From Escherichia coli (GTDB taxonomy: Bacteria > Pseudomonadota > Gammaproteobacteria > Enterobacterales > Enterobacteriaceae): 64,000 nt of DNA. Positions 1 to 48,936 of this stretch are shown piece by piece. Below the pieces are notes generated by a model. The model had not been told where the DNA came from and searched no databases. It saw nothing but the letters and a program-made list of their open reading frames with translations. Numbering within the stretch: the stretch's first letter is position 1; each line of letters begins with the position of its first letter. A program made the translations under genes and the position numbers. Location of the stretch: assembly GCF_041248615.1 (NCBI RefSeq), contig NZ_CP158426.1; one strand, written 5' to 3'.

Positions 1-573
1 GGGCAGTTGAAAGAGCGCAAGATGGGCATTAAAGCCGAAGAGTTCAACCTGAAAAAAGGGCTGGTGCTGGCGGTGATGTGCGGCATTTTCTCTGCCGGGA
101 TGTCCTTTGCGATGAACGCCGCAAAACCGATGCATGAAGCCGCTGCCGCACTGGGCGTCGATCCACTGTATGTCGCTCTGCCAAGCTATGTTGTCATCAT
201 GGGAGGCGGCGCGATCATCAACCTCGGTTTCTGCTTCATTCGTCTGGCAAAAGTGAAGGATTTGTCGCTAAAAGCCGACTTCTCGCTGGCAAAACCGCTG
301 ATCATTCACAATGTGTTACTCTCAGCACTGGGCGGGTTGATGTGGTATCTGCAATTCTTTTTCTATGCCTGGGGCCACGCCCGCATTCCGGCGCAGTATG
401 ACTACATCAGTTGGATGCTGCATATGAGCTTCTATGTATTGTGCGGCGGTATCGTCGGGTTGGTGCTGAAAGAGTGGAACAATGCAGGTCGCCGTCCGGT
501 AACGGTGTTGAGCCTCGGTTGTGTAGTGATTATTGTCGCCGCTAACATCGTCGGCATCGGCATGGCGAATTAA
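1..573 (+). CDS. rhaT: L-rhamnose:H+ symporter RhaT, C-terminal portion (5' end lies before the window)
   Basis: Hydrophobic membrane-protein translation in frame from base 1 to the TAA at 571-573; sits next to rhaR/rhaS as in E. coli. The track start at base 7 is an internal TTG, not the true start. Confidence 0.85.
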
Positions 574-1418
574 TCTTTCTGCGAATTGAGATGACGCCAC
601 TGGCTGGGCGTCATCCCGGTTTCCCGGGTAAACACCACCGAAAAATAGTTACTATCTTCAAAGCCACATTCGGTTGAAATATCACTGATTAACAGGCGGC
701 TATGCTGGAGAAGATATTGCGCATGACATACTCTGACCTGCCGCAGATATTGATTGATGGTCATGCCAGTCTGCTGGCGAAATTGCTGACGCAAAACGCG
801 CTCACTGCACGATGCCTCATCACAAAATTCATCCAGCGCAAAGGGACTTTTCAGGCTGGCCGCCAGCCGGGTAATCAGCTTATCCAGCAACGTTTCGCTG
901 TATGTTGGCGGCAACGAATCACTGGTGTAACGATGGCGATTCAGCAACATCACCAACTGCCCGAACAGCAACTCAGCCATTTCGTTAGCAAACGGCACAT
1001 GCTGACTACTTTCATGCTCAAGCTGACCGATAATCTGCCGCGCCTGTGCCATCCCCACGCTACCTAAGCGCCAGTGTGGTTGCCCTGCGCTGGCACTAAA
1101 TCCCGGAATCGCCCCCTGCCAGTCAAGATTCAGCTTCAGCCGCTCCGGGCAATAAATAATATTCTGCAAAACCAGATCGTTAACGGAAGCGTAGGAGTGT
1201 TTATCGTCAGCATGAATGTAAAAGAGATCGCCACGGGTAATGCGATAAGGGCGATCGTTGAGTACATGCAGACCATTACCGCGCCAGACAATTACCAGCT
1301 CACAAAAATCATGTGTATGTTCGGCAAAGACATCTTGCGGATAACGATCAGCCACAGCGACTGCCTGCTGGTCGCTGGCAAAAAAATCATCTTTGAGAAG
1401 TTTTAACTGATGCGCCAC
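570..1418 (-). CDS. rhaR: AraC-family rhamnose regulator RhaR
   Basis: Translation matches the RhaR pattern ([13 protein letters not shown]... with C-terminal AraC HTH). The track ORF extends to 1529; I trimmed to a GTG giving 282 aa from memory of the K-12 length. Start uncertain (alternative 1508). Confidence 0.85.
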
Positions 1419-1491
1419 CGTGGCTACCTCGGCCAGAGAACGAAGTTGATTATTCGCAATATGGCGTACAAATACGTTGAGTAGATTCGCG

Positions 1492-2328
1492 TTATTGCAG
1501 AAAGCCATCCCGTCCCTGACGAATATCACGCGGTGACCAGTTAAACTCTCGGCGAAAAAGCGTCGAAAAGTGGTTACTGTCGCTAAATCCGCAGCGATAG
1601 GCGATGTCAGTAACGCTGGCTTCGCTGTGGCGTAGTAGATGTCGGGCTTTCATCAGTCGCAGGCGGTTCAGGTAACGCTGAGGCGTCAGTCCCGTTTGCT
1701 GCTTAAGCTGCCGATGTAGCGTACGCAGCGAAAGAGAAAATAGATCCGCCACGGCATCCCAATTCACCTCATCGGCAAAATGGTCCTCCAGCCAGGCCAG
1801 AAGCAAGTTGAGACGTGATGCGCTGTTTTCCAGGTTCTCCTGCAAACTGCTTTTACGCAGCAAGAGCAATAATTGCATAAACAAGATCTCGCGACTGGCG
1901 GTCGAGGGTAAATCATTTTCCCCTTCCTGCTGTTCCATCTGTGCAACCAGCTGTCGCACCTGCTGCAACACGCTGTGGTTAACGCGCCAGTGAGACGGAT
2001 ACTGCCCATCCTGCTCTTGTGGCAGCAACTGATTCAGCCCGGCGAGAAACTGAAATCGATCCGGCGAGCGATACAGCACATTGGTCAGACACAGATTATC
2101 GGTATGTTCATACAGATGCCGATCATGATCGCGGACGAAACAGACCGTCCCACCGGCGATGGTATAGGGCTGCCCATTAAACACATGAATACCCGTGCCA
2201 TGTTCGACAATCACAATTTCATGAAAATCATGATGATGTTCAGGAAAATCCGCCTGCGGGAGCCGGGGTTCTATCGCCACGGACGCGTTACCAGACGGAA
2301 AAAAATCCACACTATGTAATACGGTCAT
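1492..2328 (-). CDS. rhaS: AraC-family rhamnose activator RhaS
   Basis: 278 aa, [14 protein letters not shown]..., cupin N-terminal domain plus AraC HTH; divergent from rhaB. Confidence 0.92.
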
Positions 2329-5341
<3,013 letters not shown>

Positions 5342-5342
5342 A

Positions 5343-5400
5343 CACTGCCGGATGCGGCGCGAGCGCCTTATTCGGCCTACGGGTCGTGCATCCGACAACA
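5343..5400. repeat. REP (palindromic unit) element between rhaA and rhaD
   Basis: gccggatgcggcgcgagcgccttattcggcctac is a REP-type GC-rich imperfect palindrome. Confidence 0.6.
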
Positions 5401-5423
5401 CCGAATTTACAGGAACACAGAAC

Positions 5424-6254
5424 ATGCAAAACATTACCCAGTCCTGGTTTGTCCAGGGAATGATCAAAGCCACCACCGATGCCTGGCTGAAAGGCTGGGA
5501 CGAGCGCAACGGCGGCAACCTGACGCTGCGCCTGGATGACGCCGATATCGCGCTTTATCACGACAACTTCCACCCACAACCGCGCTATATTCCGCTCAGC
5601 CAACCCATGCCTTTACTGGCAAATACGCCGTTTATTGTCACCGGCTCCGGCAAATTCTTCCGTAACGTCCAGCTCGATCCTGCAGCTAACTTAGGCGTCG
5701 TAAAAGTCGACAGCGATGGCGCGGGCTACCATATTCTCTGGGGGTTAACCAACGAAGCCGTCCCCACTTCCGAACTTCCGGCTCACTTCCTTTCCCACTG
5801 CGAGCGCATTAAAGCCACCAACGGTAAAGATCGCGTGATCATGCACTGCCATGCCACCAACCTGATCGCCCTTACCTACGTACTGGAAAACGACACCGCG
5901 GTCTTCACTCGCCAGCTTTGGGAAGGCAGCACCGAGTGTCTGGTAGTGTTCCCGGATGGCGTCGGCATTTTGCCGTGGATGGTGCCCGGCACGGACGAAA
6001 TCGGCCAGGCGACCGCACAGGAAATGCAAAAACATTCGCTGGTGTTGTGGCCCTTCCACGGCGTCTTCGGCAGCGGTCCGACACTGGATGAAACATTCGG
6101 TTTAATCGACACCGCAGAAAAATCAGCACAAGTATTAGTGAAGGTTTATTCGATGGGCGGCATGAAACAGACCATCAGTCGTGAAGAGCTGATAGCGCTC
6201 GGCCAGCGTTTCGGCGTTACACCACTCGCCAGTGCGCTGGCGCTGGCGCTGTAA
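5424..6254 (+). CDS. rhaD: Rhamnulose-1-phosphate aldolase
   Basis: Starts [24 protein letters not shown]...; class II aldolase; track ORF extended upstream over the REP. C-terminus ends ASALALAL encoded by three GCGCTG units. Confidence 0.93.
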
Positions 6255-6263
6255 GGAGCAAAC

Positions 6264-6578
6264 ATGATCCGCAAAGCCTTTGTCATGCAGGTTAACCCCG
6301 ACGCCCACGAAGAGTATCAGCGTCGGCATAATCCAATCTGGCCGGAACTGGAAGCAGTGTTGAAATCTCACGGTGCGCATAACTACACCATTTACCTCGA
6401 CAAAGCGCGTAATCTGCTGTTTGCCACGGTAGAGATTGAATCTGAAGAACGGTGGAATGCGGTAGCCAGTACTGATGTTTGCCAACGTTGGTGGAAATAT
6501 ATGACCGACGTTATGCCAGCTAACCCGGATAACAGCCCAGTCAGTAGCGAGCTGCAAGAAGTGTTTTACCTGCCTTAA
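6264..6578 (+). CDS. rhaM: L-rhamnose mutarotase
   Basis: 104 aa [30 protein letters not shown]...; follows rhaD. Confidence 0.92.
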
Positions 6579-6618: not shown

Positions 6619-8013
6619 TCAGAAGAAGTATTTAAAGCGAACGCGTGCGCCGTAACGGTCATCAGTATCATCACCGTGTTTTTTATCACCGTCGCTATCC
6701 AGAATGGAGTAATACGTCCCGAGGTAAATATTAAAGTTCTCCATATCCATCACATTAGCGAACTGATAAGACGCATGAATGGTGTGAATGGTGTACGTCC
6801 CTTCATCATCAATCCAGCAGTCGTTATCACAAACTACACCGCTGAATTCATCAATCTTATTGTGCGCGTAGATATAACCCAGCTCGAAACGTTTCCACAG
6901 CGCGTTAATCCCGGCAGTGAAATCTTTCTCATTATTAGCATCTAAATAGGCGGTATTAAGATTAACCACGACACCATTTTCCGGATCCGTTTTCAGGCCA
7001 TTCCAGGTCATGCTCATACCATAGCCGGTACGATCGGACTGATCGACAAAATTACCCTTGCTATCGGTATAACCATAAGCATTATTTACCACGTTCGCTT
7101 CCATCGCTGCGGAAACGGTGAATTCTTCCGTCGGCGACCAGGCAATTACCGGACGCAGATAAGCAACATTTTTCTGCTGCTCCATATCGCGTCCATGATA
7201 ATTACCGTCATTATATAAAGATGTTCCGTCTTCAAGTAACGTGTTTAATTCAAAATACCAGTTATCAAGTTGTTTGCTGACGAGGAAATTACCGCCAGCG
7301 TTAGAGCGCCCGCGGCCCTCTTTCATCATATAGATATAACCGCTGCCATCGTCATAAAGATCGTTCGCAGTATTACCGGAATGTTCAACAAAGGTATCCT
7401 GATTCAGCGGGAACATATCATAGGCTTCGAAACGACCGACTTTGACCTTCCAGTCATTCTCTTTGCCAAAGAAGAATACCGCATCATCGATATTTACTGA
7501 ACCGTGCATGTCCCCCAGCGGTTGTGCGGAGAACCCGGCGAAATAACCATTATCCAGTTTTCGCATACCATCAAAACCTAACAGAATACGACCATTGAGA
7601 TTCCACTGTTCATTAGTGGGATCGCTATTCACATCAGCGTTGGTCATTGCCAGCAAGCCATGATTACTTTCCGCATCCATATTAAATTCTACGTCGCCGT
7701 AGATTTTTAAATCGCCATAACCTGAGAGCAAAAGATTAGGTGAGGTGGCATTTTTCTTTGCAGATTCCGCCGTTGCCTGTCCATTTACCGGCGTATTGCC
7801 CTGAGCGGCCTTAATTTCGCGGATCTCAGCGGCTTGTTGTGTCTGCAACTGTTTAACCTGGCTCTCTGCTTTTGCCGCCCGCATTTCTGCCGCTTCCAGG
7901 CGTTCTTCCAGCAATGCCATGCGTTGTTCCAGCGTTAAATGCTGTGTTTTTGCCATACCGGTACTACATGCCAATAATAAACCGATGGCTAAAGATAATG
8001 TCGATTTTTTCAT
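6619..8013 (-). CDS. Outer-membrane carbohydrate-selective porin (OprB-like), with N-terminal coiled-coil region
   Basis: 464 aa; signal peptide MKKSTLSLAIGLLLACSTGMA; heptad-like charged stretch (LEQRMALLEERLEAAEMRAAKAESQVKQLQTQQAAEIREIKAAQ) reminiscent of the ScrY N-terminal extension; aromatic/Gly/Asn/Asp-rich beta-barrel body ending in the C-terminal Phe signature ...RFKYFF. Family call is from pattern only. Occupies the position where K-12 has the frv operon (from memory). Confidence 0.7.
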   Translation of the reverse strand: MKKSTLSLAIGLLLACSTGMAKTQHLTLEQRMALLEERLEAAEMRAAKAESQVKQLQTQQAAEIREIKAAQGNTPVNGQATAESAKKNATSPNLLLSGYGDLKIYGDVEFNMDAESNHGLLAMTNADVNSDPTNEQWNLNGRILLGFDGMRKLDNGYFAGFSAQPLGDMHGSVNIDDAVFFFGKENDWKVKVGRFEAYDMFPLNQDTFVEHSGNTANDLYDDGSGYIYMMKEGRGRSNAGGNFLVSKQLDNWYFELNTLLEDGTSLYNDGNYHGRDMEQQKNVAYLRPVIAWSPTEEFTVSAAMEANVVNNAYGYTDSKGNFVDQSDRTGYGMSMTWNGLKTDPENGVVVNLNTAYLDANNEKDFTAGINALWKRFELGYIYAHNKIDEFSGVVCDNDCWIDDEGTYTIHTIHASYQFANVMDMENFNIYLGTYYSILDSDGDKKHGDDTDDRYGARVRFKYFF

Positions 8014-8366
8014 TATTTACGTTCCCTGAAATAAAGGAGGCCCTACGCTTTCCAAAAGGAATACGTATATAGAGAAATATAAAGTGTGCACTTTCGAATT
8101 TTTAATCCAACTTCAGCAGGCCGATGGATAGTATCCCGCCGCATAATATGAGTAAATCCGCTGATTTCCTGGAACGTGAGGAATATAACAATAGTGCCGT
8201 TTTTAACCAAATATCGTAAAAAATATTAGATATAATTCACGCTGACTCATAAGCCACAAATATAAATAACGCTTAAACAAATTATCTGAGACATTTAAAC
8301 ATTCACAACATCATTAAATAATGATACTTTATTCACAAAATTTATCCTTCACTCTGCTTTATATTG

Positions 8367-9095
8367 TCACGACTTCGTGACATATCCGCGCTCATCACAA
8401 ACCCGCCCCGCGATTACAATTGACTGAAATATTTCATCGACCATTTCGTTGTACTCGCGTAACGCTCGCGGAAATGAGTCGTCGACCATCCAGCTTGTGT
8501 TTGCATCCTGAAGTTGCTCTTTATCCCAGTCAGAGTACGGAACTTTATCTCTGACGCGGCGAACATATTTTTTAGCCTCGAGTTGATACTGGTCTGCCGA
8601 ATTAATGAACGAGAAATTCATACCGCCTTTATCCGCTTCTTTGGCCTGCGCCACCAGCGTTTCCAGTTCAGAGACTTTCTTCATTGCCGCATCAACATCA
8701 AACTTCTCTTGCGATATCAGGTTATTAATTTGTTTCGCTGAAATCATGACTGCCAGAGAATAGTAGTGGAATGTTTTCCCTTCTCTTTCTTCAATATTTT
8801 TCAGTTCCGCAAGCTGACGCTTATCATTAATTTCCTGGATCGCCGCATGATAAGATTCGGCTACAGGTTCAAAGGCGTCCAGATTTTTTAAGAATGTCTG
8901 GTGCAGCGTTTTCCCTTTCGCAAACGCATCGTCTTTATAATTTTCCTGGGTGTAATATTTATCCATTTCGTTAATGGTATTACCCAACGCCACGGCAGCA
9001 TCAATATAACTCACCGCCACGCCATCAATAGGTTGCAGCGCAGGCGTTAACGCTACTACACGCGTTTTGTTTATAAATAAAATAATAAAATTCAC
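8367..9095 (-). CDS. yiiG: YiiG-like hypothetical protein (DUF3829-like), possibly truncated or divergent
   Basis: 242-aa ORF immediately downstream of fdhD, where K-12 has yiiG. Starts at a GTG abutting the fdhD terminator hairpin, with no signal peptide. I recall K-12 YiiG as longer, so this may be a fragment or a shorter allele. Confidence 0.5.
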   Translation of the reverse strand: MNFIILFINKTRVVALTPALQPIDGVAVSYIDAAVALGNTINEMDKYYTQENYKDDAFAKGKTLHQTFLKNLDAFEPVAESYHAAIQEINDKRQLAELKNIEEREGKTFHYYSLAVMISAKQINNLISQEKFDVDAAMKKVSELETLVAQAKEADKGGMNFSFINSADQYQLEAKKYVRRVRDKVPYSDWDKEQLQDANTSWMVDDSFPRALREYNEMVDEIFQSIVIAGRVCDERGYVTKS

Positions 9096-10171: not shown

Positions 10172-13100
10172 ATGCAGGTCAGCAGAAGGCAGTTCTTTAA
10201 GATCTGCGCTGGCGGTATGGCAGGCACCACGGCAGCGGCACTGGGTTTTGCACCCAGCGTAGCACTCGCGGAAACCCGGCAGTATAAACTGCTGCGCACC
10301 CGCGAAACCCGTAATACCTGCACCTATTGTTCCGTAGGCTGTGGGCTGTTGATGTACAGCCTCGGTGACGGAGCAAAAAACGCCAAAGCATCTATCTTCC
10401 ATATCGAAGGCGATCCGGATCACCCGGTCAACCGCGGTGCACTTTGTCCGAAAGGCGCTGGCCTGGTGGATTTCATCCACTCCGAAAGCCGTCTGAAGTT
10501 TCCGGAATACCGTGCGCCAGGTTCTGATAAATGGCAGCAAATCAGTTGGGAAGAGGCGTTTGATCGCATCGCCAAACTGATGAAAGAAGACCGCGATGCT
10601 AACTACATTGCGCAAAACGCCGAAGGCGTGACTGTTAACCGCTGGCTCTCCACCGGGATGCTGTGTGCTTCCGCGTCGAGTAACGAAACCGGCTATTTAA
10701 CGCAAAAATTCTCCCGCGCGCTGGGTATGCTCGCGGTCGACAACCAGGCGCGTGTCTGACACGGACCAACGGTAGCAAGTCTTGCTCCAACATTTGGTCG
10801 CGGTGCGATGACCAACCACTGGGTCGACATCAAGAACGCCAACCTCGTCGTGGTGATGGGCGGTAACGCCGCTGAAGCTCACCCGGTCGGGTTCCGCTGG
10901 GCGATGGAAGCCAAAATTCACAACGGCGCGAAGCTGATTGTGATCGATCCTCGCTTTACGCGTACGGCGGCGGTGGCTGACTACTATGCCCCTATTCGTT
11001 CCGGTACTGACATTGCTTTCCTGTCAGGCGTATTGCTGTACCTGCTGAACAATGAAAAATTCAACCGCGAATACACCGAAGCCTATACCAACGCCAGCCT
11101 TATCGTGCGTGAGGATTACGGCTTTGAAGATGGCCTGTTCACCGGCTACGACGCGGAAAAACGCAAGTACGATAAATCCTCCTGGACTTACGAACTGGAC
11201 GAAAACGGCTTCGCCAAACGCGATACCACGCTGCAACATCCGCGCTGCGTGTGGAACTTGCTGAAACAGCACGTTTCCCGCTACACGCCAGATGTGGTTG
11301 AAAACATCTGTGGTACGCCAAAAGACGCGTTCCTGAAAGTCTGCGAATACATCGCCGAAACCAGTGCTCACGATAAAACTGCCTCGTTCCTGTATGCCCT
11401 CGGCTGGACGCAACACTCTGTTGGTGCGCAAAACATTCGTACGATGGCGATGATCCAGCTGCTGCTCGGCAATATGGGGATGGCAGGCGGCGGCGTTAAC
11501 GCCCTGCGCGGTCACTCCAATATTCAGGGGCTGACGGACCTGGGGCTGCTGTCGCAGAGCCTGCCGGGTTACATGACGTTGCCGAGCGAGAAGCAGACCG
11601 ATCTGCAAACCTACCTTACAGCCAACACGCCAAAACCGCTGCTGGAAGGTCAGGTAAACTACTGGGGCAACTACCCGAAATTCTTCGTCTCCATGATGAA
11701 GGCCTTCTTTGGTGATAAAGCGACGGCGGAAAATAGCTGGGGCTTTGACTGGTTGCCGAAGTGGGATAAAGGCTACGACGTCCTGCAATACTTCGAGATG
11801 ATGAAAGAAGGCAAGGTCAATGGCTATATCTGCCAGGGCTTTAACCCTGTTGCCTCATTCCCGAACAAAAACAAAGTGATCGGTTGTCTGTCGAAACTGA
11901 AGTTCCTCGTCACCATCGACCCGCTGAACACTGAAACCTCTAACTTCTGGCAGAACCACGGTGAGCTGAACGAAGTTGACTCGTCGAAGATCCAGACCGA
12001 AGTGTTCCGTCTGCCATCGACCTGCTTCGCGGAAGAGAACGGTTCTATCGTTAACTCCGGTCGCTGGTTGCAGTGGCACTGGAAAGGTGCGGACGCCCCG
12101 GGGATTGCGCTGACTGATGGCGAGATCCTCTCCGGTATCTTCCTGCGCTTGCGCAAGATGTATGCCGAACAGGGTGGCGCGAACCCGGACCAGGTGCTGA
12201 ACATGACCTGGAACTACGCCATCCCGCATGAGCCGAAGTCGGAAGAAGTGGCGATGGAGAGCAACGGTAAGGCGCTGGCCGATATTACCGATCCGGCAAC
12301 CGGGGCGGTTATCGTCAAGAAAGGCCAACAACTTAGCTCGTTCGCCCAACTGCGCGATGACGGTACCACCTCCTGTGGCTGCTGGATTTTCGCCGGTAGC
12401 TGGACGCCAGAGGGCAACCAGATGGCACGCCGTGATAACGCCGATCCGTCTGGCCTCGGTAACACGCTGGGCTGGGCATGGGCATGGCCGCTTAACCGCC
12501 GCATTCTGTATAACCGCGCCTCCGCAGATCCGCAGGGTAACCCGTGGGATCCGAAGCGTCAGTTGCTGAAATGGGACGGCACCAAATGGACCGGCTGGGA
12601 TATTCCGGACTACAGCGCAGCACCTCCGGGCAGTGGCGTCGGGCCGTTTATCATGCAGCAGGAAGGCATGGGACGTCTGTTTGCCCTTGATAAGATGGCG
12701 GAAGGTCCGTTCCCGGAACACTACGAGCCGTTTGAAACGCCGCTGGGAACTAACCCGCTGCATCCAAACGTTATCTCGAACCCGGCTGCGCGTATCTTTA
12801 AAGACGACGCCGAAGCGTTGGGTAAAGCCGATAAGTTCCCGTATGTCGGAACCACCTATCGTCTGACCGAGCACTTCCACTACTGGACCAAACACGCGCT
12901 GTTGAACGCGATTTTGCAACCAGAGCAGTTTGTGGAAATCGGGGAGTCGCTGGCGAATAAACTTGGCATTGCCCAGGGCGATACCGTGAAAGTCTCCTCC
13001 AACCGTGGCTATATCAAAGCCAAAGCGGTGGTGACCAAACGTATTCGCACGCTGAAAGCGAACGGCAAAGATATCGATACCATCGGTATTCCGATTCACT

Positions 13101-13222
13101 GGGGCTATGAAGGCGTAGCTAAAAAAGGCTTTATTGCCAATACGTTAACGCCATTCGTTGGTGATGCGAACACGCAGACGCCGGAGTTTAAGTCCTTCCT
13201 TGTGAATGTGGAAAAGGTGTAA
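10172..13222 (+). CDS. fdoG: Formate dehydrogenase-O major (alpha) subunit, selenocysteine-containing
   Basis: Track ORFs 10172..10759 and 10808..13222 are in the same frame, separated by one in-frame TGA at 10757-10759 (context ...ARV-TGA-HGPT...). Twin-arginine signal MQVSRRQFFK; Cys cluster CTYCSVGCG; molybdopterin oxidoreductase body. Total 1016 codons. Confidence 0.93.
10757..10800 (+). other. Selenocysteine UGA codon and downstream SECIS stem-loop in fdoG
   Basis: In-frame TGA followed by cacggaccaacggtagcaagtcttgctccaacatttggtcg, which can fold into a hairpin directly 3' of the UGA as expected for a bacterial SECIS. Confidence 0.75.
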
Positions 13223-48115: not shown

Positions 48116-48625
48116 TTAGTTGCCCCGCAGCAGACGCATCATATCTTCTTGCTTCTCGTCTTCTTCCTCTTCTTCGTCATCGTCATAAGAGAGGCCGAGT
48201 TTCTGCATCAACTCATCAATACGATCCAGTTTGGCATCCACCCAGGATTGCTCTTCGGCGCTCAGGGTTTCGCCTGCTTCCAGACGTTCCAGCAGCGCAT
48301 CCAGACGCTCATCCGTTTCCAGTAACTCCAACTCCGCCTGCGGTGAAAGCATAGGTTTCTCACTCTTCGGTTTGTGCTGTTTGGTGACTTTTTCAGTCAC
48401 GCCCAATGGAATAGGGGTTTTACTGCCAATACGTGGATCTTTCGGTGCGTTCTGGCCTTTGCTGCCTGACGTGGTGTTACCGCCCGCTGCGCGGCTGCCC
48501 GGCGCATGACCACGACGTTTTTTCTGACGCTTACGGTCACGAGCTTCCTGATCCAGCTCCTCGCGTGTTTTTCGACGCGCTTTTGCATGACCTTTGCTGC
48601 GTGAGTTTGAAGATGATGGTTTCAT
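48116..48625 (-). CDS. yihI: Der GTPase-activating protein YihI
   Basis: 169 aa from [34 protein letters not shown]..., highly charged, acidic C-terminus; track ORF extended 21 codons upstream. Confidence 0.88.
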
Positions 48626-48691
48626 AATGGTTCGTCTTTTAGCCGTTTTATTCAGTATAGATTTGCGGCGGAATCTAACAGAAAGCAAGCA

Positions 48692-48936
48692 AAGAAAAAA
48701 GGCGACAGATTACTCTGTCGCCTTTTTTCCTGACTCATAACCCTTAACGGGTCTTACAATCCTTGCAGGCCGCCAACACACCCTGTTTTTCCATTAGCCG
48801 GAACAATCCGTGTTGATTCCATTTCCGTTTAATTACGTCTCCGGACGTTTGTCTTCCTGACAATCCTCTGTCTTCGCCTCCTGGCGCTCCTGACCCTCAT
48901 CCTGAGTCATTGTTCCTGTTAGCGTCCTCGCTCTAT
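48692..48936 (-). ncRNA. csrC: CsrC small RNA (CsrA-sequestering)
   Basis: Minus-strand sequence begins ATAGAGCGAGGACGCTAACAGGAACAATGACTCAGGATGAGGGTCAGGAGCG..., carries many AGGA/GGA motifs, and ends in the hairpin GGCGACAGAGTAATCTGTCGCC plus T-run; matches the CsrC sequence as I remember it; located between yihI and engB. Confidence 0.85.

Follow-up and report, generated by a model that had tools for sequence, protein, structure and literature searches.

Whether the rhaD gene of an Escherichia coli strain ends with one more hexanucleotide unit than that of other strains, how such a unit would have been gained, and whether it matters for RhaD or for the downstream gene rhaM are the questions raised by the locus described here. 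They were addressed in a 64-kb stretch of E. coli DNA, analysed as a whole and referred to below as the window.

The tandem repeat at the 3' end of rhaD

The features of the window on which the analysis is centred are the following.

5424..6254, plus strand: rhaD, rhamnulose-1-phosphate aldolase (class II aldolase), 276 aa (open reading frame list; PDB match; RefSeq WP_001590965.1)
6234..6251, plus strand: (GCGCTG)x3 tandem repeat (Tandem Repeats Finder; 18-mer unique in the window; 6-bp gap in K-12 and strain N3)
6252..6263, plus strand: rhaD stop codon TAA, then GGAG (likely rhaM Shine-Dalgarno) and the spacer to the ATG at 6264 (sequence reading)
6264..6578, plus strand: rhaM, L-rhamnose mutarotase, downstream gene of the operon (open reading frame list; RefSeq annotation)

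The repeat tract reads GCGCTGGCGCTGGCGCTG on the plus strand (6234-6251), a perfect (GCGCTG)x3 directly followed by the rhaD stop codon TAA (6252-6254), and was described by Tandem Repeats Finder as having a period of 6, 3.0 copies and 100% matches. Read in frame, positions 6225-6254 consist of CTC GCC AGT, the pair GCG CTG three times, and TAA, the tract thus being the last six rhaD codons (Ala-Leu three times). An initial annotation of this DNA had recognised (GCGCTG)x3 as the end of rhaD, within a range (6225-6257) that corresponds to the repeat plus nine bases upstream and six downstream, and had deduced a SALALAL tail and a 276-aa product from the MQNITQ start. All of this is confirmed by the sequence, the open reading frame starting at 5424 being 831 bp long. 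Made of perfect head-to-tail short units, the tract is the sole perfect period-6 repeat with at least three copies in the 64 kb. No second copy of the 18-mer was found elsewhere in the window with up to one mismatch, nor did it occur in any of 100 dinucleotide-preserving shuffles.

The gene carrying the tract is an ordinary rhaD. Over its residues 1-274, the protein matches the PDB entry of RhuA, 1gt7 (E = 1.5e-187), and the Pfam domain PF00596 (Aldolase_II) is present in RhaD homologues. The same coding sequence, 5424..6254 (WP_001590965.1), is found in the RefSeq annotation of NZ_LT599825.1, in which rhaT, rhaR, rhaS, rhaB, rhaA, rhaD and rhaM are annotated over the part corresponding to window positions 1-6578. 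The residues H141, H143 and H212, the zinc-binding histidines of RhuA in published structure work, are invariant columns in an alignment of 28 enterobacterial sequences that includes the window protein. Compared to K-12 RhaD/RhuA (PDB 1GT7, 1OJR; 274 aa), the window protein matches over residues 1-274 and has the same rhaBAD-rhaM context and the same three histidines, but differs by four substitutions (P44L, Q51P, I92V and K261Q) and by a C-terminal Ala-Leu insertion, two residues that bring it to 276 aa. An AlphaFold2 model of RhaD, built from the 28-sequence alignment, was discarded for locating the tail (mean pLDDT of 58, below 50 in the tail).

As for the reference state, the K-12 length of 274 aa, as given in the initial annotation, proved correct: rhaD of an MG1655 derivative is 825 bp long and codes for 274 aa, the RHAD_ECOLI sequence has 274 aa, and so have 11 of the 12 RhuA sequences of the PDB, the twelfth (2v9i, an engineered variant) having 273. 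The K-12 tail is SALAL, i.e. two GCGCTG units, and SALAL also ends the 1gt7 alignment, the one PDB alignment printed. When 3' ends were aligned, both K-12 and strain N3, the closest two-unit complete genome over the 301-base probe described below, displayed a clean 6-bp gap located exactly inside the repeat, so the suggestion of one extra GCGCTG unit with respect to K-12 also holds. The downstream junction, TAAGGAGCAAACATG, is the same in alleles of one, two, three and four units.

Copy number among complete E. coli genomes

Among the 5,426 complete E. coli genomes, 5,402 were matched by a 301-base probe spanning the rhaD-rhaM junction. The match covered 80% or more of the probe in 5,224 genomes, and was confined to its rhaM part in the remaining 178. 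Full-length matches without the 6-bp gap were limited to two genomes. The units were then counted with short probes, one per copy number, and the sum of the genomes with one to four units equals the 5,224 with the junction.

1 unit: 2 genomes (O121 strain 201805972 and VL7S7)
2 units: 5,218 genomes (5,222 matches, from which the four 3-unit genomes, aligned with a gap, were subtracted)
3 units: 4 genomes (NRZ14408, isolate 362, 1919D62 and CEA106S)
4 units: 0 genomes

With a probe made of AGT, two units and the 20 bases downstream, 5,084 genomes gave matches of at least 99% identity, and another 140 differed by one mismatch. The mismatches to the longer probe were situated in the left flank in both genomes in which they were examined. 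As a whole, about 99.9% of the complete genomes have two units and about 0.1% have another number. The four-unit allele is absent from the complete genomes with the junction (0/5,224) and was found only in draft and metagenome assemblies. Such a count of units at rhaD 3' ends across E. coli had been proposed in the initial annotation, whose reading depended on three units not being the state of all strains, K-12 included; with 5,218 of the 5,224 genomes at two units, four at three and two at one, this is clearly the case.

Among the 178 genomes in which only the rhaM part was matched, one was examined, E. coli O26:H11 FWSEC0001. It has a lactaldehyde reductase gene (annotated fucO) between rhaD and rhaM (locus L011, 2856-4004), and its rhaD is a divergent allele ending in GCGCTGGCACTTTAA, where a SALAL tail is coded by an imperfect DNA repeat.

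Beyond E. coli, the RhaD proteins of Citrobacter and Klebsiella aerogenes have 274 aa and also end in SALAL. On this comparison, made at the protein level, and given the near-universality of two units in E. coli, the two-unit state is taken as ancestral. The tail beyond residue 270 or so is the most variable part of RhaD among orthologues, in both length and sequence: the proteins have 273 to 280 aa, the longest being in Rouxiella, and their endings include SAVALY (Salmonella), SALALYN (Pluralibacter), SALDLYP (K. pneumoniae) and ALHLDKRHVA.

The window lineage and the allelic series

The first 24 kb of the window are 100% identical to NZ_LT599825.1 (E. coli NRZ14408), onto which the window maps one-to-one from position 5123546, and nearly identical to NZ_OW967178.1 (isolate 362, from Madrid, Spain). 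The next best complete genomes display 98.0-98.5% identity over the same 24 kb. Likewise, the rhaD core of the window (the 806 bp preceding the repeat) is the same as in NRZ14408 and isolate 362, and differs from that of K-12 at 39 sites. In the window, the extra unit is the mark of a small and fairly divergent lineage. It could be used, in a minor way, to recognise the NRZ14408 / isolate 362 clade.

The other two three-unit genomes, 1919D62 and CEA106S, as well as both one-unit genomes, have a rhaD core identical to that of K-12. Since the cores differ (39 sites from K-12 in one case, none in the other), the expansions in the window lineage and in the K-12-type background are separate events.

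The series was extended by exact-sequence look-ups in a collection of 15 billion proteins. Contigs were counted, and these counts reflect the sampling of clones rather than mutation rates.

Window protein: 1 unit, absent; 2 units, 510 contigs; 3 units, 393 contigs; 4 units, 10 contigs
K-12 protein: 0 units, absent; 1 unit, 170 contigs; 2 units, at least 1,000 contigs; 3 units, 38 contigs; 4 units, 2 contigs

For the four-unit alleles of both the window and the K-12 backgrounds, GCGCTGx4 was confirmed in the DNA. One of them (L012) has no SNP with respect to the window across rhaD and 3 kb of flanks, which indicates a further step from three to four units within the window lineage. Alleles of one, two, three and four units therefore exist on a core identical to that of K-12 (0/806 SNPs), and alleles of three and four units on the window core, 0 SNPs apart; the two-unit allele nearest to the window core (L019) is distant by 7 SNPs out of 806.

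The K-12-type three-unit allele was found in at least five haplotypes among ten loci. These haplotypes differ in the length of the rhaA-rhaD spacer (82, 241, 266 or 450 bp), in sequence (0-22 SNPs per 2,385 bp) and in the genes further downstream, where rhaM may or may not be followed by a porin gene. As for the one-unit allele, it occurs in at least two haplotypes. The expansion is consequently present in unrelated backgrounds, that of the window and at least five haplotypes of K-12 type. Some of this diversity could be explained by short-patch recombination spreading one and the same three-unit tract, and for this reason the events are estimated as a minimum rather than counted. The 272-aa RhaD of Shigella sonnei, a member of the same protein cluster, was considered as a one-unit allele and rejected, its tail (...NSCA) being different in sequence.

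Origin of the third unit

Very probably, the third unit was derived from the two-unit state when one unit was duplicated in frame by replication slippage, with an effect that is likely neutral or nearly so. Four observations, together the classical signature of slippage at a short tandem repeat, point to this: gains and losses concern whole units, the flanks are identical, the change is recurrent, and the alleles form a step series from one to four. The slipped-strand length polymorphism envisaged in the initial annotation is in this way supported by unit-sized variants (one, three and four units) on otherwise identical cores and in several haplotypes. On a two-unit tract, the nascent strand would have moved backwards by a single 6-base unit and paired again in a shifted register. 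As methyl-directed mismatch repair in E. coli deals with loops of no more than about 4 nt, a 6-nt loop would be expected to escape it. The outcome would be an Ala-Leu insertion, from ...SALAL to ...SALALAL, with no change in reading frame, stop codon, terminal residues or rhaM initiation region. Clonal inheritance in the NRZ14408 / isolate 362 lineage would have followed, together with a later slip to four units, and the same tract would have gained and lost units independently on other E. coli backgrounds. A hairpin-assisted variant of slippage, based on a stem-loop at the start of the tract (GCCAG-TGCG-CTGGC), was rejected: in DNA folding energies, calculated for either strand and for two or three units, folding was no better than in shuffles (z = -0.7 to -1.4).

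Import of the third unit by homologous recombination, as part of a divergent rha allele coming from a different Escherichia lineage, would account for the divergence of the region, where the rhaD core differs from that of K-12 at 39 of 806 positions, where the 24 kb are at most 98.5% identical to any complete genome outside the window's own lineage, and where the architecture is unlike that of K-12, with a porin gene instead of frvABXR after rhaM. However, the same protein with two units is common (510 contigs) and a two-unit allele lies only 7 SNPs away; the divergent background is thus normally a two-unit one, to which the extra unit was added as a later event. Moreover, import would still require a unit duplication in some donor, and not one of the 27 orthologues inspected in other genera has an ALALAL ending. 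Import is accordingly considered quite improbable. That the third unit would be a sequencing or assembly artefact, as the rarity of the allele (just 4 of 5,224 complete genomes) might suggest, rare indels being sometimes errors, is effectively refuted by the identical allele in two independently assembled complete genomes (isolate 362 and NRZ14408), by the exact 276-aa protein on 393 contigs from several sources, and by the same expansion in unrelated backgrounds with four-unit derivatives; also, sequencing errors typically do not take the form of a complete 6-base unit.

Consequences for RhaD and rhaM

With a unit of 6 nt, every allele stays in frame and uses one and the same stop codon, and the alleles of two to four units all end in ...ALAL. 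The repeat lies upstream of the rhaM Shine-Dalgarno, so that the spacing of the latter to the ATG is independent of copy number. In a partition-function folding of the RNA of synthetic versions with zero to five units, the predicted unpaired probability of the Shine-Dalgarno remained between 0.27 and 0.31, and that of the AUG was also unchanged. An effect of copy number on rhaM translation was therefore rejected on the basis of this flat predicted accessibility.

At the protein level, judging from sequence comparison, the extra Ala-Leu most likely makes little or no difference to the enzyme. Because the tails of orthologues vary in length and sequence, an extension by two residues is plausibly tolerated, and the persistence of the three-unit allele in the sampled lineage, over hundreds of contigs, agrees with near-neutrality.

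The opposite reading would make the repeat a functional and selected tuning or contingency locus, modulating the activity, stability or assembly of RhaD, or the expression of rhaM. Its copy number does vary from one to four, and recurrently, and the C-terminal region of RhaD matters for at least one assayed property: in a published screen, deletion of 15-20 C-terminal residues of RhaD reportedly abolished its transfer via the F-type secretion system (PMC11288057). This paper on F-plasmid protein translocation is silent on RhaD enzyme function and on tail length. A 6-nt unit, however, is always in frame and offers no on/off switching, and neither a frame shift nor a change in promoter or RBS spacing was found among the alleles, which share the stop codon, the terminal ALAL, the rhaM Shine-Dalgarno spacing and the downstream junction. 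Nor is the tract a long, hypermutable one with a broad distribution of lengths: unlike hypermutable contingency loci, it is very short (one to four units), with 99.9% of the genomes at two. The predicted Shine-Dalgarno accessibility is flat from zero to five units, orthologue tails vary freely, and the carriers, which include isolates from swine, a human biopsy and clinical isolates, show no evident link to a particular host or source. Such a tuning or contingency role is thus very unlikely, and slightly less likely still is the version in which the Ala-Leu tail is a weakly selected tuning element whose gains and losses reflect selection by niche and not drift. If tuning were true, RhaD proteins of different tail length (272, 274, 276 or 278 aa in total) would differ measurably in tetramer stability, turnover, activity or another property dependent on the C-terminus.

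Comparison with known repeat loci

With the hexanucleotide VNTR/SSR loci used in the MLVA typing of E. coli, the rhaD tract shares perfect head-to-tail units, allele differences of whole units on identical backgrounds, recurrent gains and losses across lineages, and a unit multiple of three that preserves the frame. It differs in being far shorter (one to four units, with a mode of two) and far less variable (about 0.1% non-modal), and in covering the final codons of a catabolic housekeeping gene. With phase-variable contingency loci, it has in common a simple-repeat copy number that changes by slippage inside a gene, but the frame is kept, no promoter or RBS spacing is affected, the tract is too short for hypermutability, and it is nearly fixed at two units.

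No relevant report of a tandem-repeat polymorphism in rhaD was found in the searchable literature. The kind of event is nevertheless a textbook one, and public databases already contain the variant proteins, normally annotated. The variant is an ordinary polymorphism, with nothing pointing to phase variation or to a functional effect. It matters little, other than as a clean and small example of recurrent slippage at a two-unit hexanucleotide tract of a housekeeping gene, with a series of one to four units, and as an explanation for the coexistence of RhaD proteins of 272, 274, 276 and 278 aa in databases. As RhuA is widely used as a scaffold in protein engineering, it may also be useful that natural variants, to judge from their persistence, tolerate two or four extra C-terminal residues.

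Other features of the window

The rhaA-rhaD spacer of the window (5342-5423) is 82 bp long, and those of other E. coli are 241, 266 or 450 bp long (e.g. L003, 2084-2324, and L004, 1875-2324). The window spacer contains a REP-like palindrome (gccggatgcggcg...cgccttattcggcctac), which makes the length classes look like differing numbers of REP/BIME elements. Downstream of rhaM, the minus strand (6619-9056) carries a gene for a 464-aa carbohydrate porin (Pfam Porin_8) and a truncated pseudogene of the YiiG family; K-12 has frvABXR at this position, and other strains have either the porin gene together with frv, or frv alone.

Further along, the large formate dehydrogenase subunit gene at 10172-13222, next to fdoH and fdoI, is labelled fdnG in RefSeq and is probably fdoG, by its position in the fdoGHI-fdhE cluster; it contains a SECIS element at 10754-10812 (Rfam SECIS_3, 84 bits). 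Between an alpha/beta hydrolase gene and fabY, a transposase gene adjoins a truncated hypothetical gene (19520-21334, minus strand), and this region may be an insertion specific to some lineages. An imperfect (TCT)n tract of about 10.7 copies with 77% matches is located at 48144-48175, inside yihI (minus strand), where it would encode a run of GAA/AGA-type codons. Finally, the sRNA CsrC was detected at 48683-48936 on the minus strand (Rfam, 278 bits), and what RefSeq lists on that strand as a pseudogene ('hypothetical protein, frameshifted; internal stop'; 48744..48910) is probably the mis-annotated CsrC sRNA gene.
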